Source: a virus
Taxonomy: Duplodnaviria; Caudoviricetes
DNA length: 61,607 bases
Virus record (IMG/VR): IMGVR_UViG_3300048029_000244
Coordinates: 1 to 61,607 of that record
Reading direction: 5' to 3' (one strand)
Below are positions 17,562 through 43,300 of this stretch, one piece after another. The position numbers and the translations under genes were made by a program. Position 1 is the first letter of the stretch; each line of letters begins with the position of its first letter. The notes beneath the pieces were generated by a model. That model worked only from the letters and a program-made list of their open reading frames with translations. It searched no databases and had not been told where the DNA came from.

Positions 17562-17690
17562 TTTCTTTATTTAGATGATTAATAATTTGTTTTTATGCAA
17601 CTTTTGTTTTAAACGGGACTTGCATATGTCCTAAAAAACCCCGAACTTTGGTGGGTGAGTGGTCTACTATTACTTATTAGTATTAAACTT

Positions 17691-17820
17691 CTAAATAACA
17701 AATAGACAGTTATACCACTTACAGTTCAGGGTATTACAGTTCTAAATTACTGATAATCAAACAGTTATACTCTATTATCCACTAAATCATTACAAAATAG
17801 ACAGATTATATAGGGTATTA
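17691..17820. repeat. Imperfect direct-repeat array in the largest non-coding gap (candidate origin/regulatory array)
   Basis: CTAAAT x3 (17691, 17742, 17782), ACAG(A)TTATA x3, AAATAGACAG x2, AGGGTATTA x2. Confidence 0.55.
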
Positions 17821-17843
17821 GACTATATCTTACTCTTAAACGT

Positions 17844-18793: not shown

Positions 18794-18939
18794 AACGTTT
18801 TATGTATTGTGGGCATAATGTTGCCCTGATTAGAATTGAACCCCCGTACAAAGATTGATAATGTGTGAGGGGGCGTACACACATATAGCATCACTCATTC
18901 ACCAAAACAAAAATTTTTTTTTTATAGCTTTGTAGTACA
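18794..18939. promoter_or_regulatory. Divergent control region between the early and late arms, with hairpins and C5/G5 tracts
   Basis: GGGCA/TGCCC and ATGTGTG/CACACAT stems, CCCCC 18841-45, GGGGG 18869-73, TAGCTTTG 18925-32. Confidence 0.65.
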
Positions 18940-19161
18940 ATGGATATAAACTTAGAAAACGGTAGAATAGTTTGCACTGATAATGGATTGTATTGTATAG
19001 AAAAGTATTACCGTGACTTTGACAATCTATTAAATGACTTTTACGAAATGTCACCTAAGATAATAAAAAACGATTTTAACATATTAAATCACAAGTATTT
19101 TGTGATAGATAAAAAAGAGTTCAGATTTATGCTTAGAATCTATTTGGAAGGAAAACGTTAA
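18940..19161 (+). CDS. Hypothetical protein, first late gene
   Basis: 73-aa ORF 7 nt after TAGCTTTG. Confidence 0.55.
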   Translation: MDINLENGRIVCTDNGLYCIEKYYRDFDNLLNDFYEMSPKIIKNDFNILNHKYFVIDKKEFRFMLRIYLEGKR

Positions 19162-19166
19162 CTTTG
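19159..19166 (+). promoter_or_regulatory. TAnnTTTG promoter, 4 nt before ATG
   Basis: TAACTTTG-CAAT-ATG(19171). Confidence 0.75.
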
Positions 19167-19170
19167 CAAT

Positions 19171-19704
19171 ATGTATTTATTGAAGGTGAGCAAAAAGGGT
19201 AGTATCCATAAAGATGCTGATAGCGTAACACTTGTTCCAGAATTTAAAAAACTGCTTGCAGCAGAGGGTATGGGTGAGACAGCTATGAAATGGGTGGCGT
19301 TAATGCACGACTATGAAAGCCCATATAGATATTTGTCTATAGATGAAAGAGCAAAAGCAGTTAGCAAAGATTTATATAACGATTTTAGTTGGAAGGGTGC
19401 TAACAAGCCAGTATTAAAGGCAGCTGTAGAAAAATATAAAAAATTACAATTTGATCCTCTTGACGAACAACTTATAGCATTTAATGCAAAAATTGATCAG
19501 TTTACTAAGTATATGAACAGCATGATTATCAATGACGACAATGCAGAGAGTTTACAGAAATTAATGATTGGGATAGAAAAGATATTGAAGACACGTCAGA
19601 CTTTGCTAGACGTGATAGAGCGTAGAGGTGAAAGACAAAAGATTGTCGGTGATAAACAAATGTCATTTTTAGAAAACAAACTAAACAGAGACCAAGATGC
19701 ATGA
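19171..19704 (+). CDS. Probable terminase small subunit (crAss-type gene upstream of TerL)
   Basis: Helical 177-aa protein with D..SPY, overlapping the terL start. Confidence 0.55.
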   Translation: MYLLKVSKKGSIHKDADSVTLVPEFKKLLAAEGMGETAMKWVALMHDYESPYRYLSIDERAKAVSKDLYNDFSWKGANKPVLKAAVEKYKKLQFDPLDEQLIAFNAKIDQFTKYMNSMIINDDNAESLQKLMIGIEKILKTRQTLLDVIERRGERQKIVGDKQMSFLENKLNRDQDA

Positions 19705-21505
19705 TGTACAGAAGTACAGACCTATTGTAAACAATGGACATCCAGATTTAAGTCCAGACTCTATATCATACCAGGAGTACTGGGAGCAAGAGCGTGATAG
19801 ATGCATAAATGGTTATAAGCCTAGGGGTATGGATAAAATTTCAGGCAAATACTACTTTTACTTAAATTACTTTAAAATATTAGGTAACTCTGGCGAAAGA
19901 GGTAATCGTAAGACTTTAATTAGTCCTTGGTACAGAGAAATGGACAAAGAGTACTTTGATTTGTTTGAAACATGTAAAGACGAAGAAAAAGGTATGATAG
20001 TTATAAAAGCCAGGGATAAAGGCTTTAGTTATATGAACTCTGGCCTATTAGCTCACGAATTTACATTCTTTCCCTTTAACGATGTTGGTGTAGCAGCTGG
20101 ACTGCAATCATCAGCTACATCATTCTTTAATAAAGTAAAAAATGGACTTAATAATATTCATTCTAATTTTAGACATTCCACTTTACGTGATACTGACGAA
20201 ATATATAAATCAGGATATAAAGTAAAGAACAAAGACGGTAAATGGGAGGTAGGCGGTTATCAGTCGCAGATTATATGCAGAACAATGGATAACCCTGAAG
20301 TATTTAAGGGTGAGCGTCTAGGTGTTATGGTATTTGAGGAAGCGGGGGAGTTTAAACGTCTTAAAAACGCATACATGTCTTCCAAAGCATGTTTTATGGA
20401 TGGAGACATACAATATGGCGTTCCAGTGATTGGTGGTACGGGTGGTGACATTACTAAGTCTTCTAAGGACTTTATGGAGATGTATTACAACGCAGACGCG
20501 TTTAATCTTATTCCTATGTTTATTCCTGCTAGTAGAGCGTACTACGGATTTTATGATATTCAGTCGGGAATAGAAGATGAGCCTGGAGCTAGAAAAAAAC
20601 TACTAGACGATAGAAAGAAAGTAGAAACCGATCAAAAAGCATACAACCTTCATTTACAAAACTACCCTATGTCTGTAGAGGAGGCGTTTCTAAACACCAA
20701 GTCTAGTAGGTTTGACATTTCTCGTATTAACGGGCAACGTGCTAGAATCATGTCAGATTCTAAGTTTAAAGGTCAAATACAAAAAGGTAACTTACATTGG
20801 ACTTTGGACGACAACGGCTTAGAAGCCGTGGAGTTTGAACCACACCCACACGGAAAATTCAAAATACTTGACCACCCGCGAACCAACTTCGTTGGTTTAG
20901 ACGTGGGAGGAGTAGATAGCTACGATCAAGATCAAGCAGGAGCTAGTACGTCTGAGGGGTGCGCGATGATATATAGAAGGTTTTTAAATGTAGACGAGCC
21001 AGGTGATTATATAGTAGCAGAATATACAGACAGGCCTGAGAGAAAGGAAGACTTTTATGATGGCGTTTTAAAACTTGCAGTGTATTATAATTCTAAAATG
21101 CTGATAGAATATACTAAAATAGCAATTATAGATTATTTTAAAAAAGAAGGCATGCAAAAGTATTTAAAAGAAAAGCCTGCGTCTGCACATAATATAAAAA
21201 CATTGACAAGAAATACATACGGAGTACATATGAATAAGCAAGTTAAGTCATACATGGAAGACTTAATGGACGATTACATTAGATCGTCAGTTGCAGACAT
21301 ATGGTTTTATGAATTACTGGAAGAGTTGTCATTTTATGGACAGCGAAACACAGACCGAGCTATAGCATTTGGATTATGTTTGTTACATAATAATGATAAC
21401 TATAGACGTAAAGTTTTGGATGCAGAAGAAAAAATTAGTAAAGAATCCTTGGGATTTCGTAAATTTGCAATGAATAGTCAAGGTATACCTAAAAAAATCA
21501 AATAA
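19697..21505 (+). CDS. terL: Terminase large subunit
   Basis: YYFYLNY, Walker A-like KARDKGFSY, Walker B VFEEAG, GGTGG, nuclease GVDSYD. Confidence 0.93.
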   Translation: MHDVQKYRPIVNNGHPDLSPDSISYQEYWEQERDRCINGYKPRGMDKISGKYYFYLNYFKILGNSGERGNRKTLISPWYREMDKEYFDLFETCKDEEKGMIVIKARDKGFSYMNSGLLAHEFTFFPFNDVGVAAGLQSSATSFFNKVKNGLNNIHSNFRHSTLRDTDEIYKSGYKVKNKDGKWEVGGYQSQIICRTMDNPEVFKGERLGVMVFEEAGEFKRLKNAYMSSKACFMDGDIQYGVPVIGGTGGDITKSSKDFMEMYYNADAFNLIPMFIPASRAYYGFYDIQSGIEDEPGARKKLLDDRKKVETDQKAYNLHLQNYPMSVEEAFLNTKSSRFDISRINGQRARIMSDSKFKGQIQKGNLHWTLDDNGLEAVEFEPHPHGKFKILDHPRTNFVGLDVGGVDSYDQDQAGASTSEGCAMIYRRFLNVDEPGDYIVAEYTDRPERKEDFYDGVLKLAVYYNSKMLIEYTKIAIIDYFKKEGMQKYLKEKPASAHNIKTLTRNTYGVHMNKQVKSYMEDLMDDYIRSSVADIWFYELLEELSFYGQRNTDRAIAFGLCLLHNNDNYRRKVLDAEEKISKESLGFRKFAMNSQGIPKKIK

Positions 21506-23770
21506 ATGTATAATACAATTACATTTCCTAAACAGCTGTTGTTAGACAGTGAAAAAACAGAAGAATGGTGTGAAGCCATGATAGATGCTATAATGAGTAC
21601 TATGAACACAGATGATTCGCCATTAGTTCATTCTAGACTTGATGATATTAGAAATTATAACATTTACAATGGACATGTAGATGTAGATGAATATAGGTAT
21701 GTTACTGAGCAGTATGGAGCTGCTTACCCAGCCAAATTAGTAAATTATCCTATTATAAGTCCTAAAATAGATTTGTTAATGGGTGAAGACTTGACTAGAC
21801 CTATAAATAAAAAAATATCTACAATAAATAAAGAAGCAGCTGTAAGAAAAATTGATGCTAAGTTAGCAATAGAAATTAAAAAGCTAATCAAAAATCAAAT
21901 TGAAGAAATGAAGCAAATGGCTCCTGCTGATTTGCATATAAAAATGGACGACGTTCCTATGCCAGACGATGTAGAAAAATACATGATGTATAACTACAAA
22001 GAGGCAGTTGAAGAAGTTGTAGAAGATGGTTTAGATTATATAATAAATAAATATAATTTAAAAGATGTTTTTAAAACAGCATTTAGAGATTTACTTGTAA
22101 CGTCTAAAGAATTTTACAAAGTCTACATTAAAAACGGAGATCCATACGTTAGACGAGTAGATCCTAGAAATGTTATATATGATACAAATTCTGAGTCAGA
22201 TTATTTAGATGACGCGCAATGGATAGGTGAAGAAAGATGGCTTTCCATAAACGAAGTTTTAGATGAATATTCAGAAGAGTTAAGTAAAGAAGATATATTT
22301 ACTATAGAAGAAATGGGTCGTGTATCATCATCAAGAGCCGCTGAAGTTTATAATCAAGACTTTGAATGGTTAGATTGGAATGATGTAAGCGGAACTAGAG
22401 TTAGAGTAGTAAGTTGCGAGTGGAAATCTATAAAGCCTATAAAGTTTAAGGTGTCGGAAAATAAATTTGATCCTGCTAGACCATTTAAAAAAGTAGTTCC
22501 TGATAACTATAAGAAAAAAAAAGGTGACCATATAGAAACTAGATACATAGATGATATATGGGAAGGTACAAAAATAGGTGGTAAAGTTTTGGTAAACTGT
22601 AGACGTAGGCCTAATCAAGTAAGATCGGTAGATGATTACGCTAGCACTCCATTGTCATATGTAGGTGTAATAAGAAATAATAGTACAGGAAGACCACAAT
22701 CTCTTGTAGACTTACTACACAATATACAAATGCTATATAATATTACAATGTATAATATTGAACTTGCTATGGCTCGTTCAGGTGGTAAAGCTGTAGTATA
22801 TGACGTTTCACAATTACCTACTAACATAGGAATGGATATACAAGATGTAATGTATCATTTAAAAAATGATGGGATTATACCTATAAATAGTAAAGATGAA
22901 GGTAATCAAATGGCATCATTTAATCAGTTTCAACAAATAGACTTTACTATATCACAATCTATATCTCAATTATTTAACTTAAAATTAATGCTAGAAGAAA
23001 CTGCTGGTCAAATATCTGGTATTAGTAGACAAAGAGCTGGAGCTATTAATACAAGTGAATATGTAGGTAATGTTCAAAGATCTGTACAGCAGTCTGCGTT
23101 AACTACAGAAACTTGGTTTTTTATGCATAATGAGGTTAAAAAACGTGTTTTAGAAAGAACTGCTAACCTTATGAAAATAGCATGGAAGTCTGGAGTTAAA
23201 GCTGCAACTATACTTGGAGATGGCGCGTATAAAATATTAAACGTTATGCCAAAAGAAATTGCTTTAAATGATTATGGTTTATTTTTAGGCGATACTGGCA
23301 AAGAACAACAAGACAAGCAAGTTATAAATCAAATAGCTCAAGCTGCTATGCAGTCTGGTAAAGCAGGCTTGTTAGATGTTTTAAGGGTTTTAAAAGCTGA
23401 TACAGCTACAGAAGCTGAACATACTTTAGAAAAAGCCTTAGAGGTTATGAATAAACAACAAGCTCAACAACAACAATTAATGCAACAGCAAGCTGAAATG
23501 CAAGAGCAAATGAAGCAAGCTGAGCATGATAGAGCATTAGAGCTAGAAAATGTTAGAGTAGGTGGAAAAGTAAAAGTCGCTGAAATAGAAACTGAAGCTA
23601 AAAAACAAATAGCTGATTTAAAAGATGATGGCGATAGAGATATTGCAGACATGAAAGAAAAGGTTAAAATGAAAGAGTCTGGAATAGACGTAAATCAACT
23701 TAACCAAACACAACAACAACCACCCAACAATAAGTCTAACAATAAAAGTCTAGATGAATTATTAGGATAA
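21506..23770 (+). CDS. Portal protein (crAss-type)
   Basis: FPKQ..., NYPIISPKIDLLMGE, WEGTKIG, G+SRQR.G motifs; follows terL. Confidence 0.9.
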   Translation: MYNTITFPKQLLLDSEKTEEWCEAMIDAIMSTMNTDDSPLVHSRLDDIRNYNIYNGHVDVDEYRYVTEQYGAAYPAKLVNYPIISPKIDLLMGEDLTRPINKKISTINKEAAVRKIDAKLAIEIKKLIKNQIEEMKQMAPADLHIKMDDVPMPDDVEKYMMYNYKEAVEEVVEDGLDYIINKYNLKDVFKTAFRDLLVTSKEFYKVYIKNGDPYVRRVDPRNVIYDTNSESDYLDDAQWIGEERWLSINEVLDEYSEELSKEDIFTIEEMGRVSSSRAAEVYNQDFEWLDWNDVSGTRVRVVSCEWKSIKPIKFKVSENKFDPARPFKKVVPDNYKKKKGDHIETRYIDDIWEGTKIGGKVLVNCRRRPNQVRSVDDYASTPLSYVGVIRNNSTGRPQSLVDLLHNIQMLYNITMYNIELAMARSGGKAVVYDVSQLPTNIGMDIQDVMYHLKNDGIIPINSKDEGNQMASFNQFQQIDFTISQSISQLFNLKLMLEETAGQISGISRQRAGAINTSEYVGNVQRSVQQSALTTETWFFMHNEVKKRVLERTANLMKIAWKSGVKAATILGDGAYKILNVMPKEIALNDYGLFLGDTGKEQQDKQVINQIAQAAMQSGKAGLLDVLRVLKADTATEAEHTLEKALEVMNKQQAQQQQLMQQQAEMQEQMKQAEHDRALELENVRVGGKVKVAEIETEAKKQIADLKDDGDRDIADMKEKVKMKESGIDVNQLNQTQQQPPNNKSNNKSLDELLG

Positions 23771-23774
23771 GTTG

Positions 23775-23782
23775 TATATTTG
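23775..23782 (+). promoter_or_regulatory. TAnnTTTG promoter for the scaffold/MCP operon
   Basis: TATATTTG 27 nt upstream of ATG 23810. Confidence 0.65.
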
Positions 23783-23809
23783 CAAAGGAGTAACAAAATT
23801 AAACATAAT

Positions 23810-24748
23810 ATGGAAGAGAATAAAACAGCATTAGTTAATAATGATACTGAGTCTACACCAGTAGAAGAAAGTAAGTTTAACCCAATAACATTTTCTGGAG
23901 TAACACCAGGAGATGAAATAGATGAAGATGTTAATACAGAAATTGTTGATAATATTGAAACTGAAAAAACCGAAGAAACGGATGATTGGTCATTTGAAGA
24001 CGAAGAAACGGTTGCAACAGATCCTAATGAAGCGGGAAGAGATGAGGTTAACTGGGCGAGAGTTGCAGCAGAGCTTGGACTTGATACAGGAAGCACAAAA
24101 GAAGAAATAAAAGAAGCTTTAAAAAATAAAGAAAAAACTGAAGAAACAAAAAAAGAAGAAAGTTCTGATAATGAATTTACACAATTAGAAAGTGTATTAA
24201 ATTTAGACGACAAAGGTTTAATGGTCGAAGAGCTTAAGGCTAGAGGATTTGCAGATTCTGAAATAGAAGATTACATAGACAGACTTGAAGATGCTGGCAC
24301 ATTAAAATACGAAGCTTTAAAAGTTAGAAATGAAATTAGAAAACACATAGTTTCTAAAGAGTCACAAGTTAAGGAAGAGGCTAAAGCTAAAAAAGAAGCG
24401 GAAGCTAAACAAATAGAAGAAAATAAAATAGCTTTACAAAAAACCATAAAAGACAGAGAAGATTTTTATGGATATAATTTAGGTAAGGAACAAAAGAAAG
24501 AAGTATATAAATATATCACAAGCGGTGATTTTTATAAAGATTTGAGTTCATCTCATGAAGAGGTGTTTGAGCAAGCGATGTTTAAATTGTTCAAAGAACG
24601 AGTAATGTCGCTACAGTCTAAAAAAGGTTATGAGGATGGTAAGTCCCAAATTTTAGACAACATAACATCTCCTGATTTAGGTAGAACTTCAAAACCGAGA
24701 CCCGTACAATCAAAGGCATTTGATCCGTCACAGTTCTCAAAAAAATAG
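23810..24748 (+). CDS. Capsid scaffolding-like protein
   Basis: Acidic, coiled-coil, between portal and MCP; ATG 23810 preferred over TTG 23780. Confidence 0.75.
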   Translation: MEENKTALVNNDTESTPVEESKFNPITFSGVTPGDEIDEDVNTEIVDNIETEKTEETDDWSFEDEETVATDPNEAGRDEVNWARVAAELGLDTGSTKEEIKEALKNKEKTEETKKEESSDNEFTQLESVLNLDDKGLMVEELKARGFADSEIEDYIDRLEDAGTLKYEALKVRNEIRKHIVSKESQVKEEAKAKKEAEAKQIEENKIALQKTIKDREDFYGYNLGKEQKKEVYKYITSGDFYKDLSSSHEEVFEQAMFKLFKERVMSLQSKKGYEDGKSQILDNITSPDLGRTSKPRPVQSKAFDPSQFSKK

Positions 24749-24834
24749 TCAGATAGTGTATGAAGTCTGACTGAAATGAAGCTTAGTGCAAGACAAAGTC
24801 TAACTAACAAGTGGATTTGAAAGTAATTCATACA
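24747..24834 (+). ncRNA. Candidate cis-acting structured RNA (pseudoknot) in the MCP leader
   Basis: AGTCAGA/TCTGACT stem; loop TGTATGAA complementary to TTCATACA (24827-34); internal stems TTAGT/ACTAA and AGAC/GTCT. Confidence 0.55.
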
Positions 24835-24876
24835 AGAGATTTTTTATTATTATTAATTTTTTAAATTTTTTTCAAA

Positions 24877-26349
24877 ATGAAAACTTATAGTGGTTCTTAT
24901 GGAAAGGATACAGAAAGAAGTAATTCTCTTGTAGAAAACCTTTTGAAATATCCTGAAATTTCGAAAACATTGGTACGTCAGCACCAACGTTATTCTTTAA
25001 CATACTTATTAGAAAGAGCAGGTCGCTTTTCTAATGCAAAAGTATTAGCTGACAATTCTTATGAGTGGAAAGTATTAGGTAGATCTAACAAGCCATTAGT
25101 TGCTGGTGCCGCTGGTAAAGCTGCTCCTGATGATAGTGGATCTGCTGGAACTTATGCTGATGATACAGTAACTACAAGTCCTAATGATTTATTTTATATT
25201 AAATTTAAATCTAACGCGGCTAACGATCACCACATTACAGTTAACAGAAATGATGTTGTAAGATTTGCTTCTGGAGCTACTGCTCTTGTTCTTTCTGTAG
25301 GTGATGTTACTAGTGGCGAAGCTGAAATCAAATTTAGATTAATAGGTACAACAGACTTAGCAGCTACAGATTATGATGCTGATGTTATTGCTGGTACTAT
25401 TTCTTCTGCATTTGGTGAGGCTTCTTTAGGATCTACTGTTGGTCAAACTCAAGTATATCCAGACACATACAAAAACTGGTTAACTATTTCTCGTAAAAAG
25501 AAAAGAGTTACAGGTTCTCAGTTGTCTGATGTAACTTGGATTGAAAACAATGGTCAAGCTCTTTGGTATTTTACCGCTGAGGAATTAATGATCCAAGAGT
25601 TTATGTATCAATTAGAATTAGCTCGTTGGTATGGTGTAAAATCTGCTGGTTTAGGTGGTGCTGTAGGCGCTCCAGGTGAAAACACAGCTACTACATTAAC
25701 TGATGCTGATGGTACACTTGTACAAACAGGTGATGGTCTTTTAGCTCAAATTGCTGGATCTAATGATGGTTCTTACTCAGGTTCTTTAACTGAAGAAGCT
25801 ATCGTAGATTATATGGCTGATCTTTCTAAAAATGCTACTGGTGCTGAAGGTAACGAGTACGTTGTAATGACAGGTACTGAGGGACGTAAGCAATTCCACA
25901 GAGCTATGAAAGATTTGTTGGTAGGCCCAGGTTCATCTTCTAACGGTGCAGGTGGAGCTACAGTATTTGATGTTAAAGCTGGTCAAGATGTTGAGTTAGG
26001 TGTTAACTTTACTTCTTACAACGCTTTAGGTAACAAAATTACTGTTGCACACTGTCCAGTGTTTGATGATCCTAACTTACACAGCTCTGCTTTAGAGTCT
26101 GGTAAAATGGTATTTTTAGACTTTGGAGCTGAAGGTGATGGTTCTAACATTGAGCTTATTGCTAAAGGTGCTGATGGATATAACAGAAACTATATCCGTA
26201 AGTATATTCCAGGTATGGTTAATCCTTACGACTACAAAGGTATGATGGCTGCTAATGGCGATGATGCATTTGAATGTCACGTAATGTCTGAGTCAGGAAT
26301 TATTGTAAGAAACCCACTTTCTTGTGGTATCTTCTCTAAGACTTCATAA
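24877..26349 (+). CDS. Major capsid protein (crAss-type HK97 fold)
   Basis: YEWKV, GDGLLAQI, V+TG..G...F..A, HCPVFDD, GIIVRNP; position after the scaffold; followed by a terminator. Confidence 0.9.
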   Translation: MKTYSGSYGKDTERSNSLVENLLKYPEISKTLVRQHQRYSLTYLLERAGRFSNAKVLADNSYEWKVLGRSNKPLVAGAAGKAAPDDSGSAGTYADDTVTTSPNDLFYIKFKSNAANDHHITVNRNDVVRFASGATALVLSVGDVTSGEAEIKFRLIGTTDLAATDYDADVIAGTISSAFGEASLGSTVGQTQVYPDTYKNWLTISRKKKRVTGSQLSDVTWIENNGQALWYFTAEELMIQEFMYQLELARWYGVKSAGLGGAVGAPGENTATTLTDADGTLVQTGDGLLAQIAGSNDGSYSGSLTEEAIVDYMADLSKNATGAEGNEYVVMTGTEGRKQFHRAMKDLLVGPGSSSNGAGGATVFDVKAGQDVELGVNFTSYNALGNKITVAHCPVFDDPNLHSSALESGKMVFLDFGAEGDGSNIELIAKGADGYNRNYIRKYIPGMVNPYDYKGMMAANGDDAFECHVMSESGIIVRNPLSCGIFSKTS

Positions 26350-26364
26350 ACATTAATACTAATT

Positions 26365-26392
26365 TGGGAGAGGTTAACGCCTCTCTCATTTT
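26365..26392 (+). terminator. Intrinsic terminator-like hairpin after MCP
   Basis: TGGGAGAGG-ttaacg-CCTCTCTCA-TTTT. Confidence 0.7.
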
Positions 26393-26423
26393 AGAACAGG
26401 TATTAACAAAAATTTTAAATATT

Positions 26424-27098
26424 ATGAAACATTTAGTTCAATTAATGGTTAAATCGCCAAAAAGATTTTCTACATTATCTTTATCTAAATATAAAGATGA
26501 AAAAGGTAAATGGAGAGTTTATACAGATATTAATGGAGAAGAGCAAGAAATATGGAAGCTTACAAGAGCTTCATTGTTTTTAGACATATCAGAAAAGCAA
26601 GATAAAAAACTATATGAATTTTTAAAAGACCACCCTTTATCTACAAAAAGTTATACTATAACAGATTTAAGACAAAAAGAAGAAGTGGAAGTAGAAAATT
26701 TACTTACATCGGCAGACGCTATATTAATAGCTTCTAAAATGGGTATAGCTGAAACTAATGACTTTGCTAGACTTTTAGGCATAACTTTAGACGCAGATCA
26801 AGACGTAATTAAAGCTAGACTTATTAAAATAGCTAATACAAAGCCAGAAAAGTTTTTAGACCTTTATCATCATCCTGAAAAAGATGAAATGGTATTTATC
26901 AAAAAAGCTTTAGATAAAAAAATTATTGTTAGAAGTAATGGTGTTTACAAGCACAATAGAATAACATTAGGTCTCACAGAGGAAGCTGTAATGACATGGT
27001 TAAAAGAAAACGCTGATGTCTATGCATTGATGAAACAAGAATTAAGAGGCAACGTAAAAGTAGATGTTAAACCAAAATCTAAAAAAGTTAAAGCTTAA
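26424..27098 (+). CDS. crAss conserved post-MCP protein (portal-vertex/gene-75-like)
   Basis: Y.FLK.HP, P..FL, IKKALDKKII motifs; true start after the hairpin. Confidence 0.65.
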   Translation: MKHLVQLMVKSPKRFSTLSLSKYKDEKGKWRVYTDINGEEQEIWKLTRASLFLDISEKQDKKLYEFLKDHPLSTKSYTITDLRQKEEVEVENLLTSADAILIASKMGIAETNDFARLLGITLDADQDVIKARLIKIANTKPEKFLDLYHHPEKDEMVFIKKALDKKIIVRSNGVYKHNRITLGLTEEAVMTWLKENADVYALMKQELRGNVKVDVKPKSKKVKA

Positions 27099-28501
27099 TG
27101 ACGTTTCAAGAGGCACATGATTTGATAGACTTGCTGTTAGATAAAGCAGATCAAGCATATTTTACAACAACAGAAAAGGATAAGTTTCTTACTATGGCTA
27201 TTATGGAGTGGTATGAAAAAGTAGTTTCAGATTATGGAAACAATCCAAGTCAAGATCATCATGAGGCAGCTAAATATATTGTATCAGAAGTAAAAACTTT
27301 TAAAGATGGTAACGGTAGTATAAGAGTGCATAATAACACTTCTAACACTACTCCTTATCCTTATAATACATACATGGGATTATCTTATCCTTTATACAGT
27401 ATTATTGATATGAGAGTAAGAACTAGTTCAAGCGCTTCTTGGGAAAGTGTTAATCCAGCTCCTCCTGGTGTTGTAAATGACAATGTTAGCGATCCTTTTA
27501 ATAAGCCAACATTAACTCATAGAAGATACAATATGGATGGAACTAGAATACAGGTTCATCCTAATAACGATATTTTAAATAACGATGCTAGAATTACTAT
27601 TAAAAAAACATCTGGAGCTTTAAGCAGCTATAATATATTGTTAGAAGGTAGTGGATACAGCACCACTAATTTAGTTACAAATGGAGATTTTGCTACAGAC
27701 TTATCTGGCTGGAATCCTACTTATAATGTTTCGCATGATAATGGTAAAGCTAAATTTGACATTACATCAGACCAACAAGAAATAAGACAAGAAGACATAG
27801 ATTTTAAAGACGGAAAGTGTTATCAAATAAAGTTTACTGTAGATGGAGGAACAGCAGGAGAAAAATTACAAGTCACTGATTATATTACAGGAACAGGAGG
27901 GTTAGTAGGAGCAGATAATCAGATTACATTGACTGGCTCTCAAATTGATGTAGCTATAGGGTGGAAGGCAAACGCTGATTCTGTCAAGATAAAAATTCAG
28001 ACAGAGGCTGCCCTAACGTCTGCTGTAACAATAGACAATGTAGAGGTTATGGAAGTACCAAGCATTACAGTGTTAGACAACACCGCAACCACAAAGCCTT
28101 TATTAGTGCCTATAACTCAATCAGGCTCAGTAACAAGTGTATATATACAAAACGCTGGAGTTGGCTCTACTATAAGTAGTCAAGAGGTTTTGGTTAGTGG
28201 TAGTCCAACTTCATCATCTTATTATTTAGATTATTTTAAATATCCTATATTATCTAATGTTGCTGGTGGCGCTTTTAATGAAGCTCATGAAAATCCAGGA
28301 ACATCAGATATACAGTTAGGAGCAGGTTCTTTAAGATATGGCCCAAAAGGATTTGACGATACAGCTACAGGTGTAACAAACTGGGGTTGTGGGCCAGAAG
28401 CTGCTGAGTCTATAGTTAAAAAAGCTGTAAGAATGATGACTGCAAATATAGAAAGTCCTCTTTATCAAGTAAATTCTATTGAAGAGAAACGAAGTGAATA
28501 A
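27098..28501 (+). CDS. Neck/tail ring protein with a large internal beta-domain insertion
   Basis: LLLDK....F...E.D.FL N-terminus, Y..YP and IV..AV C-terminus; internal NLVTNGDF...IDNV module. Confidence 0.65.
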   Translation: MTFQEAHDLIDLLLDKADQAYFTTTEKDKFLTMAIMEWYEKVVSDYGNNPSQDHHEAAKYIVSEVKTFKDGNGSIRVHNNTSNTTPYPYNTYMGLSYPLYSIIDMRVRTSSSASWESVNPAPPGVVNDNVSDPFNKPTLTHRRYNMDGTRIQVHPNNDILNNDARITIKKTSGALSSYNILLEGSGYSTTNLVTNGDFATDLSGWNPTYNVSHDNGKAKFDITSDQQEIRQEDIDFKDGKCYQIKFTVDGGTAGEKLQVTDYITGTGGLVGADNQITLTGSQIDVAIGWKANADSVKIKIQTEAALTSAVTIDNVEVMEVPSITVLDNTATTKPLLVPITQSGSVTSVYIQNAGVGSTISSQEVLVSGSPTSSSYYLDYFKYPILSNVAGGAFNEAHENPGTSDIQLGAGSLRYGPKGFDDTATGVTNWGCGPEAAESIVKKAVRMMTANIESPLYQVNSIEEKRSE

Positions 28502-28534
28502 TATTAAAGAGGCTCTTTTTGTTTCTCCTTGTTC

Positions 28535-28575
28535 GAAAGTAGGTGGATTCACTATCAGTGATGAAGCCTATTTTC
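28535..28575 (+). other. Intergenic stem-loop with an internal purine loop
   Basis: GAAAGTAGG/CCTATTTTC outer stem, TCAC/GTGA inner stem. Confidence 0.5.
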
Positions 28576-28587
28576 ATTTAATTTAAT

Positions 28588-28595
28588 TAACTTTG
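28588..28595 (+). promoter_or_regulatory. TAnnTTTG promoter, 4 nt before ATG
   Basis: TAACTTTG-CAAT-ATG(28600). Confidence 0.75.
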
Positions 28596-28599
28596 CAAT

Positions 28600-29247
28600 A
28601 TGGCTACGTTAAAAGAAATAGTATACAACATAAAGAATATAGCTGAGGGTGGTTTTAGTCAAGACACAGACTCTAAAATATCTACATTACAAGTAGAGTT
28701 TTTAGTGCATACATACAGAGCGCAGCTTTTATTACAATATTCTAATAACGGCAGAAAACTACATCCTGAGACTTTACAATCACATGTAGTTACTATAGAT
28801 GGTGCAGACGTAAAAAAAGTAACTTTACCAAGTCTAGTACAATTTAATAGTCAAAGAGCTATAAAAAGCATAAGAGCTAAAATAGGATCTACAGAAAATA
28901 TAGAGGTGTTTCTTTCGTCTGAAGGTATGACTACGTACTCATCGTCTAATAAATTTACAGGATTATCAAAAAAAGCTTATTTAAAAAATGGTGAGCTGCA
29001 TTTTAATTTTAACACAGATACAAGTGACACTATAACTATATTAGGATGTTTTTCTAATCCTAAAGACGTAAGCACATATGTTGATGACGATACTACAGAG
29101 TATCCATTGCCACAAGAGTTAGTTACTGTTTTAACACAGCAAATATTACAAAATGAATATAGAGTTGTTATAAACGAGCCAAGAGACAAAGAAGTAGATG
29201 GACAAACACCTAGAGAGAAAGTACAAGGACAAGTACGTCAGCGTTAA
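28600..29247 (+). CDS. Tail ring protein (crAss-type)
   Basis: TLKEIVYNI, YRAQLL, F.NP, YPLP motifs; position. Confidence 0.7.
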   Translation: MATLKEIVYNIKNIAEGGFSQDTDSKISTLQVEFLVHTYRAQLLLQYSNNGRKLHPETLQSHVVTIDGADVKKVTLPSLVQFNSQRAIKSIRAKIGSTENIEVFLSSEGMTTYSSSNKFTGLSKKAYLKNGELHFNFNTDTSDTITILGCFSNPKDVSTYVDDDTTEYPLPQELVTVLTQQILQNEYRVVINEPRDKEVDGQTPREKVQGQVRQR

Positions 29248-29620
29248 AGATATATACAAGTCTATAAAGTCTGACATAAATAATATAAGCTATACTAATT
29301 TTTATAGTATAGTAAAGACGTTTTTTGAAGAATTGATACGTGAGTTAGTCGTAGACAAAGCTACAGTTACATTACCAGCTAAAATGGGTAAAGTATATAT
29401 AAAGAAAATGCTACACAAAAGAGCTTTTCATTATAGATGCAATGTAAATGAAGTAGATAATAACGGTAAAAGGGTAGTTTATAAAGTACCGATATTAAAC
29501 GACTATTATTATAAGGTAGTTTGGTTGCGGCCAAAAAAATATAAAATGGCAAAATTAATGCCAATGGGATTTTTTAAAAAAGCTATAAAAAAAGAATTAG
29601 AAATAGGTAACGATTTTTAA
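29198..29620 (+). CDS. IHF-like protein of the crAss structural block
   Basis: F..IV..FFE......VTLP.KMG.+YI.K pattern; conserved position before the tail tubular gene. Confidence 0.7.
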   Translation: MDKHLERKYKDKYVSVKDIYKSIKSDINNISYTNFYSIVKTFFEELIRELVVDKATVTLPAKMGKVYIKKMLHKRAFHYRCNVNEVDNNGKRVVYKVPILNDYYYKVVWLRPKKYKMAKLMPMGFFKKAIKKELEIGNDF

Positions 29621-29621
29621 A

Positions 29622-30281
29622 ATGGAATTTGTATCAGTAAATAGAATTATTGCAGCAGTAGGAAGAAACCTAGGCATGTCTGACGTAAATATGTATGCAG
29701 ACTCAATAATAGAATGGTCTTTTGAAGCTGAAAAGTTTATAGGAGGACTTAATTCATTTTTAAAGCAAGAAGATGATTTAACTATATCAGGGTATAGAGC
29801 GTCTTTGCCGTCTAATATAGTTAAGGTTTTAAGTGTGTCTAAAGGTCAAACTATATTAAAACCTACACATGCATATTTTAGAGGTAACGCAACAGGCGAC
29901 GATGCAGATACCGACAATATGGTAGACAACTCTCGTTACTATATACAAGATGGATACATAAATGTTAAATGTGATGATGGAGAAAAAATTACTATATCAT
30001 CTTTAATTATACCTACAGACACAAATGGTTATCCTAAAATTAATGAAGCACATGTAGAAGCGGTAACGGCGTATTGCATGTGGATGTTAAAAAATATAGA
30101 TTACTACAATGGCAAGGCTCCTCAATATGTAGTAAATGATTTACAAAAAAGATGGATATTTTTGTGCGGTCAGGCAAGAGGTGTAGATGGTATGCCATCA
30201 TCAGCTGAGCTAACAGAAGCTGCATCATATTGGAATACATTAATACCTATTAAATCTAAAAACGGTTTAAAAAATCTATAA
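29622..30281 (+). CDS. Tail tubular/ring protein
   Basis: IIEW..EA...IG, P.D..GYP.I, EA+.AYC, W..LC.QAR. Confidence 0.75.
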   Translation: MEFVSVNRIIAAVGRNLGMSDVNMYADSIIEWSFEAEKFIGGLNSFLKQEDDLTISGYRASLPSNIVKVLSVSKGQTILKPTHAYFRGNATGDDADTDNMVDNSRYYIQDGYINVKCDDGEKITISSLIIPTDTNGYPKINEAHVEAVTAYCMWMLKNIDYYNGKAPQYVVNDLQKRWIFLCGQARGVDGMPSSAELTEAASYWNTLIPIKSKNGLKNL

Positions 30282-40398: not shown

Positions 40399-43300
40399 AT
40401 GCCAAATAATTTTTTAGATGGTTTAGAACAGCCACAATCTACACAAAAATCTCAACAAAATTTTGATCAAATAGCTCAGCAACAAAATGAGGTTATTAAA
40501 AGAGCCTCTGAAAGCGTAGCAGAGCAACAAAGATTTGGATCTACTGGTATGGTTCAGCCAGACAGTTTTGCGGCAGACACAAGAGATATATTTATGTCTG
40601 GTGCAGAAAAAACTAAAAGGTCATTAGTTGCAGGTACAGGAGATGTAATGGAACAAGTTATAGACTTGACACAATTAGCGTATAACTATGCTACTCCATT
40701 AGGCATGGCAGAGCAAGCTTTAGGATTAGATTTTAGCAAAAACATTTTTGACTGGGTAGAAGAAAATACTGCTGGTCAACTACAAGAATATGGCGTAAAA
40801 TATAGAAAGCCAGGTACTGAGGATTTTAAATGGTCAGACTTAGGTACAGCAGATTTTTGGACTACAGACTTTGCTAGGCAAATGCCAAATTTACTTACAA
40901 TGATGGCTGGTGGTATGGGTCTTGCAAAAGGAGCAGGAAACCTTATGACTAGAATGGCTAGTAAATCTTTAGCTAAAAAAAGCGGAAAATTAACTACAGA
41001 TATGTTAACTAAAACTTCAGCTGGTTCGCAGTTTGGAGGTAAAGGGTTAGGTAAATTATTTACTAAAGGGCCTAAAGGAGTTGCATTAACTAATCAAGGT
41101 AAGGCAGTTGCAGGATTAGGTGGTGGTGCTGGCATGAACATAGTAGACGGCGCAATAGTGTCTGGTATGGCTTACGATAGAGCATTAGATGAGTTTGGCA
41201 CAGATGAAGAAGGCAGAAGATTAGCTGGTCAAATAGCAGGCAATATATTTGTAGATAATTCAAAATGGATAGCTGTAGACGCGGTGTCATGGTCTTTTAC
41301 TTTTGGTGGTGGCTCTAAGTTGTTACTACCTAAAGCTGTACAAAAAATGAACCAGTCTAAGTCTACTTTTGGTAAAAGGGTAAAAAATATACTAATTAAT
41401 AGTGGAGTTGGCGCTACAGCTGGGGCATCTATTGCAGGCGCAGCTACATTAGGTGAAGAAGGCATGAGTGACTCTATGTTAAAAGGCGCAGCTGTAGGAC
41501 TAGGAGCAGGTTTATTGCCAGGAAGATCAGGTGCAAGAGCATCAGTATTAATAGCTCCTGAAGGGATAGAAGAAATGTTTCAAGAAACATATCAAGAGTG
41601 GATTGAAAAGAAAGCTTTAAATGAGGCTAGAGGAGAAGAAGAAAAAACACCAACATATTGGGACTTTTATTCATCAGACAAAGCAAGGCGTACAAAAGCT
41701 GTATCATTATTTTCTGGTATGACTGGTGCTACTATAAGCAGATATACTAATTTAATAAACGATGTAGCTGAAAGAAGCTTTCAAAACGATCAACGTATAG
41801 ATAGTATAACGCGCTCTATGAACAGATTAAATGTAGATGAGACATACGAAAAGTCTGACGCTATTAGAGAGGCTGTAAGAGAGGCTGTAAAGTATGACAA
41901 TCAAGAGTCTCTAAAATCCTGGCTTAATGAAGAAGCGGCTAAAGATAATGGCTCAGTAGACGAAAGGTTTAGAGATGAAATGATGTCTTTGATAGACAAC
42001 ATGACGTCTATTAAAGAAAAAATAGGCACTAATGTAGATTTTACTACAAGTGAAGAACGTGTGTTATTTGAAGAGCATTCTTTAATGGCTATGCGTGAAG
42101 ATGATTATAATAATCAAAAAAGTATATACGAAAGCAATTTAGCAGAATTACAGGCTGATATAGATAAAATAAATAGATCTAGACAGACTGATAAAAACAA
42201 AAAAAATGCTATAAAAAACATTAATACATTAATAGAGGTAGAAAACGAAAAATTTGCTCAGCTAGAAAACAACTATAATGCATTACAAAACGAATCACAG
42301 TCTAACATAAATGATTTTACTACTAAGGCATTAGAAAAAGCAAAAAACAGAAATAAAGTAAATAAAGAAAATTTTGTTTCATTAGTTAATAAAGCAGCTG
42401 CTAAATCTAAATCTATAGCTAAAAAGTTTGTAGCATCATTTAATGAAATGAAAACAGCTTATGCTGAAGCTACGTCACAAGCTAAACAACAGCAAGTTTT
42501 AGACGAACAAGGTAACCCTGTATTAGACGAGCAAGGAAAGCCTGTAATGGAGCAAGCTCCTGAAGACATGTCTGACAATAGATATAATACGTTTGTAGAC
42601 AATATAGTTAAAGAAATAAAGATAGGCGCTGAAAACGAACTAGAAGGGTTTACAGATGAAGAAATTAAGTCTATTGCTATCAATGCATTAACAAAAGCAG
42701 GAATAACAAATGAGACAAGTTTGGATAATTTGCCTGATAATTTCGATGTAAAGCTAGAAGAAATAGTTGATAACGAAATAAAATTACTTACAGAAGAAAA
42801 AAAGAAAAATCAACCATCATTATTTCAAAAAATAAAAACTAAAACTAAAGAAGTAGTAGATAGTGTAAAAGATAAAATAACAACAAAAAAAGAAGATATA
42901 GAAACAGGTCGTAAAGTCGATGCACAAACTGCGACAGAACAAAAAGTTTCTAAAGAAGAAAAGCCTACACCTAAAGAGTCTATAAAAAAGAAGGCTGACA
43001 ATAAAGATTTAAGAATTATAAAAAAATTAGAAGATCAAATAGCTGAATTAAAGTTAAAAGAAAAGCTTACAGATATAGAGCAAAAGGTTTTAAACAAAAC
43101 AAAAAAAGCATTAGAATCTATATTATCTAGAATAGAGCGATCTAAAATAGATGAAGATAAAAAAATAGTAGATCCTAAAAAAATATTAAAAGATAAAAAG
43201 AAAGACGCTAAAAGGAAAAACGAATACAAAACAGCTTGGTACAACCCTATGCGTATTTTAGAAAAACGCAAATTAAAAGCTAAGCGTGATAAAGAAATTA

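Follow-up and report, generated by a model that had tools for sequence, protein, structure and literature searches.

CrAss-like phages rank with the most abundant of all known phages, and they obtain hundreds of capsid subunits per particle from genes that adjoin low-copy genes. Elsewhere among phages, RNA phages carry small coat-protein operator hairpins with a constrained loop and closing pair at the start codon, and the HK022 put and lambda nut boxB RNAs are one or two small cis-acting hairpins that are transcribed within a long phage operon, just downstream of the promoter and upstream of terminators. Cellulophaga phage phi14:2 is the only marine crAss-like phage for which transcription has been studied. 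According to the part of that study drawn on here, its late RNAs are made by the host RNA polymerase and the major capsid protein (MCP) gene gives the transcript that tops all others in abundance, yet promoter motifs precede the homologues of the portal and pre-MCP genes and none is reported upstream of the MCP gene itself (10.1101/2020.03.07.982082). Hosts of the same phylum ignore Shine-Dalgarno sequences and tune initiation through mRNA structure, as the abstract of PMC6847099 states, which makes mRNA structure the obvious control lever in such hosts. Here, we describe the MCP leader of a marine crAss-like phage, a conserved and structured stretch that is probably a new element and probably tunes capsid-protein output.

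Results

The window, by which we mean the whole stretch of DNA that was analysed (61,607 nucleotides), is a complete crAss-like phage genome of 61.6 kb. The phage has no close isolate: the best tblastn match of its MCP is in Flavobacterium phage FpV4 at 24% identity, a nucleotide query of 24300–25300 against the phage collection gave no match, and a search of genome contigs for MCP relatives found none. Four of the 12 RNA runs listed, from one study, contain 51–54% of the words sampled from 23500–26500 (metatranscriptome runs kept as contigs). The gap between the MCP gene, with its ATG at 24877, and the gene upstream of it covers 128 nt (24749–24876) and is the biggest within the + strand structural block. 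A direct coordinate check recovered every sequence feature that an earlier note on this DNA had described here, including a U/A-rich tract ahead of the MCP start. The features are as follows.

23775–23782, + strand: candidate Bacteroidota-type −7 box TATATTTG, between the portal stop codon (23768–70) and the ATG at 23810; putative function.
23810–24748, + strand: upstream gene, 312 aa from ATG 23810 (start given by the ORF finder, TTG 23780); stop codon TAG 24746–48.
24747–24772, + strand: stem 1, 7 bp, AGTCAGA (24747–53) and TCTGACT (24766–72) being exact reverse complements; 12-nt loop; predicted energy −10.0 kcal/mol.
24757–24764, + strand: loop segment TGTATGAA, proposed 5′ strand of a pseudoknot; exact complement of TTCATACA at 24827–34.
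24783–24807, + strand: hairpin 2, with lower stem TTAGT (24783–87) and ACTAA (24803–07), an internal loop, apex AGAC (24791–94) and GTCT (24798–24801), and an AAA triloop (24795–97).
24822–24840, + strand: block AGTAATTCATACAAGAGAT, conserved in the alignment; contains TTCATACA (24827–34), proposed 3′ strand of the pseudoknot.
24840–24876, + strand: A/U tract, 37 nt, 36 of 37 positions A/T, reaching the MCP start codon.
24877–26349, + strand: MCP gene, 490 aa; Pfam Crass_capsid PF23898 (E 2e-37); PHROG 11589, major head protein.

The 5′ arm of stem 1 includes the AG of the TAG stop codon, a second TGAA lies at 24777–80, and the apex of hairpin 2 (24791–24801) is the core that is kept across the family. 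The block at 24822–40 occurs once in the whole window; within it, AGTAATTCAT is identical in 11 of 11 aligned sequences of the window's clade, and the rest varies by one A/G column and by one relative with a short deletion. The A/U tract would be an initiation region without a Shine-Dalgarno sequence, by analogy with the hosts of the same phylum treated in the abstract of PMC6847099. The 312-aa upstream protein is rich in charged residues (E, D and K) and by synteny occupies the portal/MCP interval, the slot of g092 in phi14:2. From its position and composition one may guess that it could be the scaffold, as the earlier note had labelled it, but searches of Pfam, PHROG and PDB returned no match.

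Energy does not single out the leader: the minimum free energy of 24740–24880 is −20.4 kcal/mol against −20.69 ± 2.98 kcal/mol in shuffles (z 0.10), 102 of 200 shuffles fold as well or better, and a Watson–Crick stem of at least 7 bp arises in 23% of shuffles of the gap. The case that stem 1 and hairpin 2 are real is made by compensatory changes in relatives. Across 10 distinct relatives with leaders of 126–129 nt, such changes occur in two of the seven pairs of stem 1 (A-U to G-C, with 95.7% of cells paired) and in three of the ten pairs of hairpin 2; these five pairs compare with 0–2 in slid controls. The covariation score of the whole structure is 0.199 against 0.129 ± 0.012 in shuffles, a value reached by 0 of 500, and RNAalifold recovers both helices from an alignment built without structure. 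One pair of relatives differs at six positions over 99 aligned nt, all of them in hairpin 2, with the pairing intact in both. The G-U pairs seen on the + strand, for example in GGAC/GTCT and TCAGG/CCTGG, point to an RNA of mRNA sense. Covariation thus shows that both stem 1 and hairpin 2 fold in the + strand RNA.

Conservation leads in the same direction. The first 92 nt of the leader are 79–94% identical to diverged relatives, compared with 67–72% at fourfold sites of the MCP gene and 45–52% at those of the upstream gene, and identity in the A/U tract between diverged relatives is only 53–61%. By these alignments the structured part of the leader is more conserved than the synonymous sites of the flanking genes. 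The suggestion of an unannotated, conserved cis-RNA structure in the MCP leader is therefore borne out, since two helices covary and conservation exceeds that of the flanking synonymous sites.

The covariation check gave a divided result for the full architecture proposed in the earlier note: stem 1 and hairpin 2 covary, but the helix between loop 1 and TTCATACA has no compensatory change. Together with stem 1 this helix would make an H-type pseudoknot acting as a switch or stabiliser for MCP expression, which ribosomes terminating at TAG 24746–48 would melt; we hold this as a tentative possibility that is more doubtful than not. The complementarity is exact over 8 bp (duplex energy −8.1 kcal/mol), and a complement to the 8-nt loop segment arises in only 0.5% of shuffles when the loop alone may pair, but on a broad search 28% of shuffles contain a helix at least as good that joins the 5′ and 3′ parts of the leader. 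Pairing is kept in 98.6% of cells in the 10 distinct relatives, with the three variable pairs switching only between A-U and G-U; these three vary one-sidedly, none of the eight pairs is compensatory, and the shuffle control is uninformative, as the observed value is reached by all 500 of 500 shuffles. RNAalifold predicts a local 3-bp hairpin that accounts equally well for the A/G change at 24832, and a short deletion in one relative (approximately 3 nt by eye) leaves 6 bp of the helix, at −3.3 kcal/mol.

The first helix of such a pseudoknot, stem 1, both covaries and is recovered by RNAalifold, and by our own reasoning loop lengths of 3, 1 and 54 nt permit the topology. However, stem 1 is limited to two small clades and is missing from most of the family. 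In the other clade that has it, a different 12-nt loop has a possible 6-bp partner (including G-U) at the corresponding place following TAATT, as is the case in 5% of shuffles, but an equally good match anywhere downstream is found in 37%. In the largest clade the corresponding segment likewise forms one strand of a helix, with its partner downstream. We therefore regard the loop 1/TTCATACA pairing as only permitted. The alternative pairing offered by the second TGAA was not upheld: TTCAT and the second ATGAA form 5 bp, the fifth of which is broken in three of 10 sequences, and there is no covariation.

The part that extends across the family is the apex of hairpin 2, a short variable stem of 3–5 bp with a C-G closing pair and a RAN triloop. 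Among 115 unique leaders of 60 nt or more, this C-RAN-G hairpin is found with at least 4 bp in 86 (1.75 in shuffles), in 17 variants, and with at least 3 bp in 104 (4.3 in shuffles); in one clade, 11 unique leaders are without it. It lies 59–87 nt upstream of the MCP start. The architecture around this core varies between clades, and in 11 of the 49 leaders of the largest clade the third stem pair is flipped, with U-A in place of A-U. The leader element is specific to a family of crAss-like phages, uncultured and marine, whose genomes measure approximately 60 kb. Gaps of only 6–33 nt are present in MCP relatives at 40–47% identity, in FpV4 and in phi14:2, so the element is not essential for crAss-type capsid expression.

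Throughout the 17 variants the stem sequence is free, while the closing C-G, the A in the middle of the loop and a purine at loop position one are kept. This pattern is typical of a hairpin recognised by a protein, and the C-RAN-G hairpin could by analogy serve as an operator. The RNA-binding protein that it recruits, whether the MCP, the scaffold-like protein or a different factor of phage or host, would time or autoregulate MCP translation. The maintained distance to the ATG fits such an operator, as does an unpaired A or small internal loop beneath the apex in several clades. The same distance is too great for a direct block of the ribosome, no candidate binding protein was identified, and hairpins of this type are no commoner in the rest of the genome than expected (the window has 12, shuffles 10.2 ± 2.4), and we consider an operator improbable. 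The last count, together with the single copy of the 24822–40 block, led us to reject a repeated promoter or operator.

Several further readings of the leader were tried and dropped. The upstream stop codon is buried in a helix in the window and in some clades, but not as a rule: its mean pairing probability is 0.57 against 0.47 in the shuffled leader and is higher in only 70 of 115 leaders. A long-range helix that joins the end of the upstream ORF to sequence beyond the hairpin is present in several clades, where the individual cases are mostly within chance. A small ORF of 12–14 codons from 24776 has its frame broken in one clade member, and the compensatory changes of the hairpin alter its residues radically.

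The same phage carries an ORF of 3824 aa. Virion polymerases of the N4 type are associated with hairpin promoters, and a promoter of this kind was considered on account of that ORF and rejected, given that the genome has no second copy of the hairpin and that the gene after it is a late one.

The Rfam search that the earlier note had called for returned no family at its cut-off. A cmscan of 24300–25300 against 4227 models (Rfam 15, E up to 10) gave three sub-threshold hits, with scores (and cut-offs) of 18.7 (55), 15.7 (35) and 13.8 (42.3) bits. The structured part of the leader has none of them on its + strand; the lowest-scoring is a Hovlinc hit on the − strand at 24433–84. A scan of the whole window at the gathering threshold gave 0 matches. 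We accordingly discard the suggestion of a self-cleaving ribozyme that cuts the polycistronic mRNA before the MCP gene. Conserved structure in an intercistronic position is the only observation in its favour; neither a known ribozyme nor any other Rfam model reaches its cut-off, and a conserved core consisting of an 11-nt hairpin with few invariant unpaired bases leaves this idea next to no credibility.

The candidate −7 box at 23775–82 has the sequence type TAnnTTTG, which, with a TTG-type −33 element, we take to be the host promoter consensus and which agrees with the phi14:2 upstream regions. Boxes of this type lie upstream of phi14:2 g092 and g093 and of its middle genes g070, g075, g108 and g110, where they correspond to mapped middle-gene promoters, and they precede other genes of the window phage. 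None of 138 unique MCP leaders contains one; the nearest TAnnTTTG-like match in the window's leader, TGGATTTG at 24811–18, is not conserved in the clade. An intrinsic terminator scan of 19000–30000 gave 11 terminator-like sites, none within 24749–24876. Because the box is missing from the leaders and present elsewhere, and because the gap has no terminator-like site, we infer that the MCP gene is co-transcribed with the upstream 312-aa gene, on a transcript that would start at the 23775–82 box and run through both genes and the leader between them.

The gap might instead hold two signals at the DNA level, with hairpins that terminate the upstream transcript or shield its 3′ end, a non-canonical late MCP promoter in the blocks after hairpin 2, and a true 5′ UTR consisting of the A/U tract only. 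In many phages the capsid gene has its own promoter, the block after hairpin 2 is conserved by sequence and not by pairing, and the abundance of the phi14:2 MCP mRNA cited above would suit such a promoter. TTGAAA is found at 24817–22, and in the largest clade TTGAAA is followed after 15–19 nt by TAAAAT-like hexamers. In relatives from the window's own clade, however, this −35-like hexamer is not kept and reads TCAAAA or TCAAGA, and a spread of 15–19 nt is wide for a promoter spacer; a sigma-70-type promoter would show TTGACA-like and TATAAT-like hexamers at a spacing of 16–18 nt that relatives keep. The blocks of the largest clade are better read as the two halves of a 12-bp hairpin whose loop varies in length; the only changes in this hairpin are purine to purine opposite U or C to U opposite G. 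The absence of TAnnTTTG from all 138 leaders also speaks against a promoter here, given that the box is used elsewhere in the window phage and in phi14:2, and a sigma-70 scan gave nothing on the + strand of the gap. On the side of termination, the sequence after stem 1 is GAAATGAAG and that after hairpin 2 is CAAGTGG, with no U-run after any stem of the gap, in line with the empty terminator scan. Two DNA-level signals are thus an unlikely account of the gap, although a non-canonical internal promoter within it is possible.

Discussion

We favour, with moderate confidence, an intercistronic mRNA leader, conserved and structured, through which capsid-protein expression is controlled at a step after transcription. 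On the co-transcript the folded leader would uncouple MCP expression from the upstream gene post-transcriptionally. It may do so by marking or protecting the 5′ end of a processed MCP mRNA, or by keeping the A/U-rich start region, which has no Shine-Dalgarno sequence, free of pairing with upstream coding RNA; an unpaired start region would then let new ribosomes load at a high rate. The loop 1/TTCATACA pairing may supply a third helix in the window's clade, and the model works without it. Against this leader model we count a fold that is no more stable than shuffles. The differences in architecture from clade to clade mean that there may be no single mechanism. The AGTAATTCATRCAAGAGAT block is without explanation in the model.

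A further-reaching reading would have the C-RAN-G hairpin recognised by a post-transcriptional control system dedicated to it, in which a phage or host factor binds the hairpin and the flanking helices, including in the window's clade a loop 1–TTCATACA pseudoknot, switch so as to time or boost capsid synthesis; the system would belong to this large phage family. The reasoning is that expression would have to be set by RNA structure because the host ribosomes ignore Shine-Dalgarno sequences. We give this reading a low probability; if true, it would be the first class of cis-regulatory RNA described for crAss-like phages. The leader element is nonetheless a small hairpin of a familiar general kind with a putative function. 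A covarying RNA element at the capsid junction, in hundreds of environmental phage contigs, provides a testable handle on capsid expression, and the hairpin is a candidate new RNA motif for Rfam-type libraries.

In comparison with known systems, phi14:2 has the same gene order as the window (TerL, portal, unnamed protein, MCP, the last two being g092 and g091), with TAnnTTTG boxes upstream of its portal and pre-MCP genes and not of its MCP gene. It differs in having a gap of 31 nt without hairpins, and its MCP has no tblastn match to that of the window at E 1. The put and nut RNAs differ from the leader in their adjacent promoter and terminators, which our promoter and terminator scans did not find around the leader, and no Rfam family was matched at its cut-off. 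The intercistronic region of E. coli papBA, an intercistronic processing or stabilising element, has no sequence similarity to the leader. The targets of T4 gene 32 protein and RegA, in the part of PMC3014915 drawn on here, resemble the leader hairpin in being small and lying in the leader of a gene whose phage protein is abundant, with a stem of free sequence but constraints on loop and closing pair; those operators overlap or adjoin the start codon, whereas the hairpin of the window's family stands well upstream. The plastid intercistronic expression element, as described in the portion of PMC2230500 consulted, shares no sequence with the leader and is likened to it by structure and position only, but it too is a short structured element between the cistrons of one transcript, and it allows an abundant product to be made from its own stable, translatable unit, which is a candidate role for the MCP leader described here.

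Genome and leader layout

A conserved RNA structure on the + strand occupies the junction of the major capsid protein (MCP) gene and its upstream gene, in a 128-nt leader (24749-24876) that is the largest gap within the + strand structural block. All leader elements described in an earlier note were found in place:

24746-48, + strand: stop codon (TAG) of the upstream ORF
24747-53 and 24766-72, + strand: stem 1, AGTCAGA pairing exactly with TCTGACT
24757-64, + strand: stem 1 loop octamer TGTATGAA, exact complement of TTCATACA at 24827-34
24777-80, + strand: second TGAA
24783-87 and 24803-07, + strand: hairpin 2, TTAGT with ACTAA around AGAC-AAA-GTCT (24791-24801)
24840-76, + strand: A/U tract, 36/37 A/T
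24877, + strand: ATG of the MCP gene, 128 nt past the upstream stop

Folding energy alone gives no signal for this structure: 24740-24880 has a minimum free energy of -20.4 kcal/mol versus -20.69 +/- 2.98 for shuffled sequences, and 102 of 200 shuffles fold as well or better. A 14-codon ORF (24776-24820, MKLSARQSLTNKWI) overlapping hairpin 2 has 12-14 codons in most clade members, is frame-shifted in one, and probably exists only as a side effect of RNA sequence conservation.

The record is a complete virus of 61,607 bp and carries direct terminal repeats. In Pfam, the MCP hits Crass_capsid (E 2e-37) and a protein of 1708 aa hits the crAss muzzle protein; in PHROG, TerL, portal and MCP all have matches. 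The gene order is TerL, portal, unnamed protein, MCP. No isolate in the phage collection is close: by tblastn the MCP reaches at most 24% identity, with Flavobacterium phage FpV4, and a nucleotide search with 24300-25300 returned no match. Neither PHROG nor Pfam nor PDB gives a match for the 312-aa upstream protein, in which E, D and K are very abundant, so that the name 'scaffold' used in the earlier note is a guess from position and composition. A 3824-aa ORF (40399-51873), also without Pfam or PHROG match, may, from its size and place in a crAss-like genome, be the counterpart of the virion-packaged giant protein carrying RNA polymerase in Cellulophaga phage phi14:2. Two large non-coding stretches, 17562-17843 (282 nt) and 18794-18939 (146 nt), lie where - and + strand gene blocks diverge, the latter with a G+C-rich inverted repeat judged by eye.

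Conservation in relatives

MCP-seeded scans of viral and metagenome contigs yielded 296 loci (297 sequences with the window), of which 288 of 297 had a placeable upstream stop and MCP ATG, giving 138 unique leaders, 115 of at least 60 nt and 23 shorter. Leaders measure 126-129 nt in the window's clade (40 sequences, 12 unique leaders), and gaps measure 6-33 nt in relatives with 40-47% MCP identity. As far as these contigs indicate, the element occurs in a large group of uncultured marine crAss-like phages.

Among 11 aligned members of the window's clade (10 distinct), compensatory changes affect 2/7 pairs of stem 1, all A-U to G-C, and 3/10 pairs of hairpin 2. Overall, 96.3% of cells are paired, versus 25-34% with partners slid, and 5 pairs change on both sides, versus 2.2 +/- 0.8 in shuffles (3/500 reach 5) and 0-2 in slid controls. 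RNAalifold recovered both helices on a longer alignment built without structure, and together these data show that stem 1 and hairpin 2 are real helices. Identity to diverged relatives is 79-94% over the structured 92 nt, exceeding that at fourfold sites (67-72% in the MCP gene, 45-52% in the upstream gene) and in the A/U tract (53-61%); the structured part is therefore under purifying selection. The earlier note's unannotated cis-RNA in the MCP leader is hence borne out by covariation and selection. Two relatives, L105:1372-1470 and L103:1372-1470, differ by 6 changes over 99 aligned nt, all in 15 columns of hairpin 2, which turn AGAC/GTCT into GAAAC/GTTTC and leave the hairpin paired in both; the pattern suggests either exchange of the hairpin as a module or a rapid series of compensating changes.

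Deep conservation in the leader centres on the apex of hairpin 2, here termed the core hairpin. It combines a 3-5-bp stem of variable sequence, a C-G closing pair and a RAN triloop, in 17 variants (for example AGAC-AAA-GTCT, AGTC-AAA-GACT, GGGC-GAT-GCCC, AGGC-AAA-GCCT, TGGC-AAT-GCCA and GAGC-AAA-GCTC). With at least 4 bp it is found in 86 of the 115 unique leaders of at least 60 nt (1.75 in shuffles), and with at least 3 bp in 104 (4.3 in shuffles); 11 leaders of one clade lack it. The loop centre lies a median 18 nt past the stop and 69 nt (range 59-87) upstream of the ATG. In the largest clade the third stem pair flips from A-U to U-A in 11/49 leaders (unbiased alignment), and G-U pairs are seen on the + strand only, the pattern that mRNA-sense RNA would give. 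Over the whole window the C-RAN-G hairpin type shows no enrichment (12 counted, 10.2 expected).

Other clades embed the core hairpin differently. In one (A5 alignment; L159, L157, L152 and 13 others) it is enclosed by a helix in which the last sense codon and stop (AGAGTA) pair with TACTCT or TATTCT ~50 nt downstream; one pair is G-C in 11 sequences, A-U in 3 and G-U in 2. Where the last codon carries a synonymous G-to-A, the partner strand has C-to-T. In another clade the stop lies within a stem of 12-14 bp that the core hairpin caps, but family leaders do not generally bury the stop codon. The common denominator across clades is the core hairpin together with A/U-rich sequence up to the ATG. 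The largest clade (A6 alignment; L224:1395-1500 and 48 other leaders) carries a second, A-U-rich hairpin of 12 bp (GTTAATTGRRCA with TGTTTAATTAAT) with a loop of variable length, ending ~17-25 nt short of the MCP ATG. The only changes in it replace one purine by another opposite U, or C by U opposite G, and its 5' strand matches window block 24823-34.

Candidate pseudoknot

The earlier note paired the stem 1 loop with 24827-34, a pseudoknot that could switch MCP expression. The complementarity is exact over 8 bp (duplex energy -8.1 kcal/mol), arises in 0.5% of shuffles if the loop alone may pair, and 98.6% of its cells remain paired in relatives; the only other clade with stem 1 has a different loop, with 6 bp possible at the matching place (5% of shuffles). 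Covariation, present in stem 1 and hairpin 2, does not extend to this helix, where compensatory change affects 0/8 pairs. The three variable pairs alternate only between A-U and G-U, so that the shuffle control (500/500 reach the observed value) cannot separate the models, and a local 3-bp hairpin would account for one of these changes as well. When any 5'-part segment may pair with any 3'-part segment, 28% of shuffles equal the helix, and stem 1 is absent from most of the family. An alternative pairing with the second ATGAA has 5 bp, one broken in 3/10 sequences. The sequence permits the pseudoknot, and such a switch, compatible with the post-transcriptional role preferred below, is possible but doubtful.

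Promoter, terminator and Rfam searches

No terminator-like and no + strand sigma-70-like sites were found in the gap 24749-24876. TAnnTTTG, the Bacteroidota-type -7 box consensus, occurs 126 times in the window, an enrichment over the 96.8 +/- 8.9 expected, and precedes the ATGs at 321, 2027, 18940, 19171 and 28600 by 4-7 nt, a spacing that would make leaderless or nearly leaderless mRNAs:

309-323, + strand: box, 4 nt to ATG
2015-2029, + strand: box, 4 nt to ATG
18925-18942, + strand: box, 7 nt to ATG
19159-19173, + strand: box, 4 nt to ATG
28588-28602, + strand: box, 4 nt to ATG

The 15-mer TAACTTTGCAATATG stands at both 19159 and 28588. Within 23768-23812, a further such box (TATATTTG, 23775-82) follows the portal stop and precedes an in-frame ATG at 23810. 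This ATG is therefore the probable start of the upstream gene (312 aa), in place of the TTG 23780 listed by the ORF finder, and the gene probably has its own promoter, as does phi14:2 g092.

An odd internal MCP promoter beside the hairpins would fit two conserved -35/-10-like blocks, 15-19 nt apart, in the largest clade. However, RNAalifold makes these blocks the strands of the 12-bp hairpin, and their changes all keep pairing; TTGAAA (24817-22) of the window is not retained within its clade, and 0/138 unique leaders contain the host-type TAnnTTTG box, which leaves such a promoter unlikely.

Rfam gave 0 matches at the gathering threshold over the whole window and only three sub-threshold hits for 24300-25300 at E up to 10; none of the known ribozyme or leader families fits. 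The self-cleaving ribozyme floated in the earlier note fits no Rfam family and is extremely improbable.

Proposed role

From the promoter and terminator results we infer that the MCP is read from an upstream-starting transcript and that the gap acts as RNA. The transcript would probably start at the box 23775-82, and the leader would then act post-transcriptionally, raising or uncoupling MCP expression. That the structure is a functional RNA we consider likely; this overall reading of its action is slightly favoured. Tentatively, we prefer a version in which it marks or protects the 5' end of a processed MCP-encoding mRNA; it might otherwise insulate the unstructured A/U start region from upstream coding RNA. 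Binding of the core hairpin as a protein operator would be compatible with this overall reading and seems quite improbable.

A post-transcriptional role fits hosts that, in the accessible text of PMC6847099, tune initiation by mRNA structure instead of Shine-Dalgarno pairing. It also fits phi14:2, for which the accessible text of 10.1101/2020.03.07.982082 gives MCP mRNA as the most abundant and reports no promoter motif upstream of the MCP gene.

A literature search, not exhaustive, found no description of the element, which matches no Rfam family and is of a familiar kind, the cis-acting structured mRNA leader. Phage phi14:2 shares the gene order TerL, portal, unnamed protein, MCP. It has TAnnTTTG-type boxes upstream of g070, g075, g108, g110, g092 and g093 but not of its MCP gene g091, and g070 and g110 show the close box-to-ATG spacing of the five window genes. 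The gap before the MCP gene, in contrast, is 31 nt in phi14:2 and 29 nt in FpV4, compared with 128 nt in the window.
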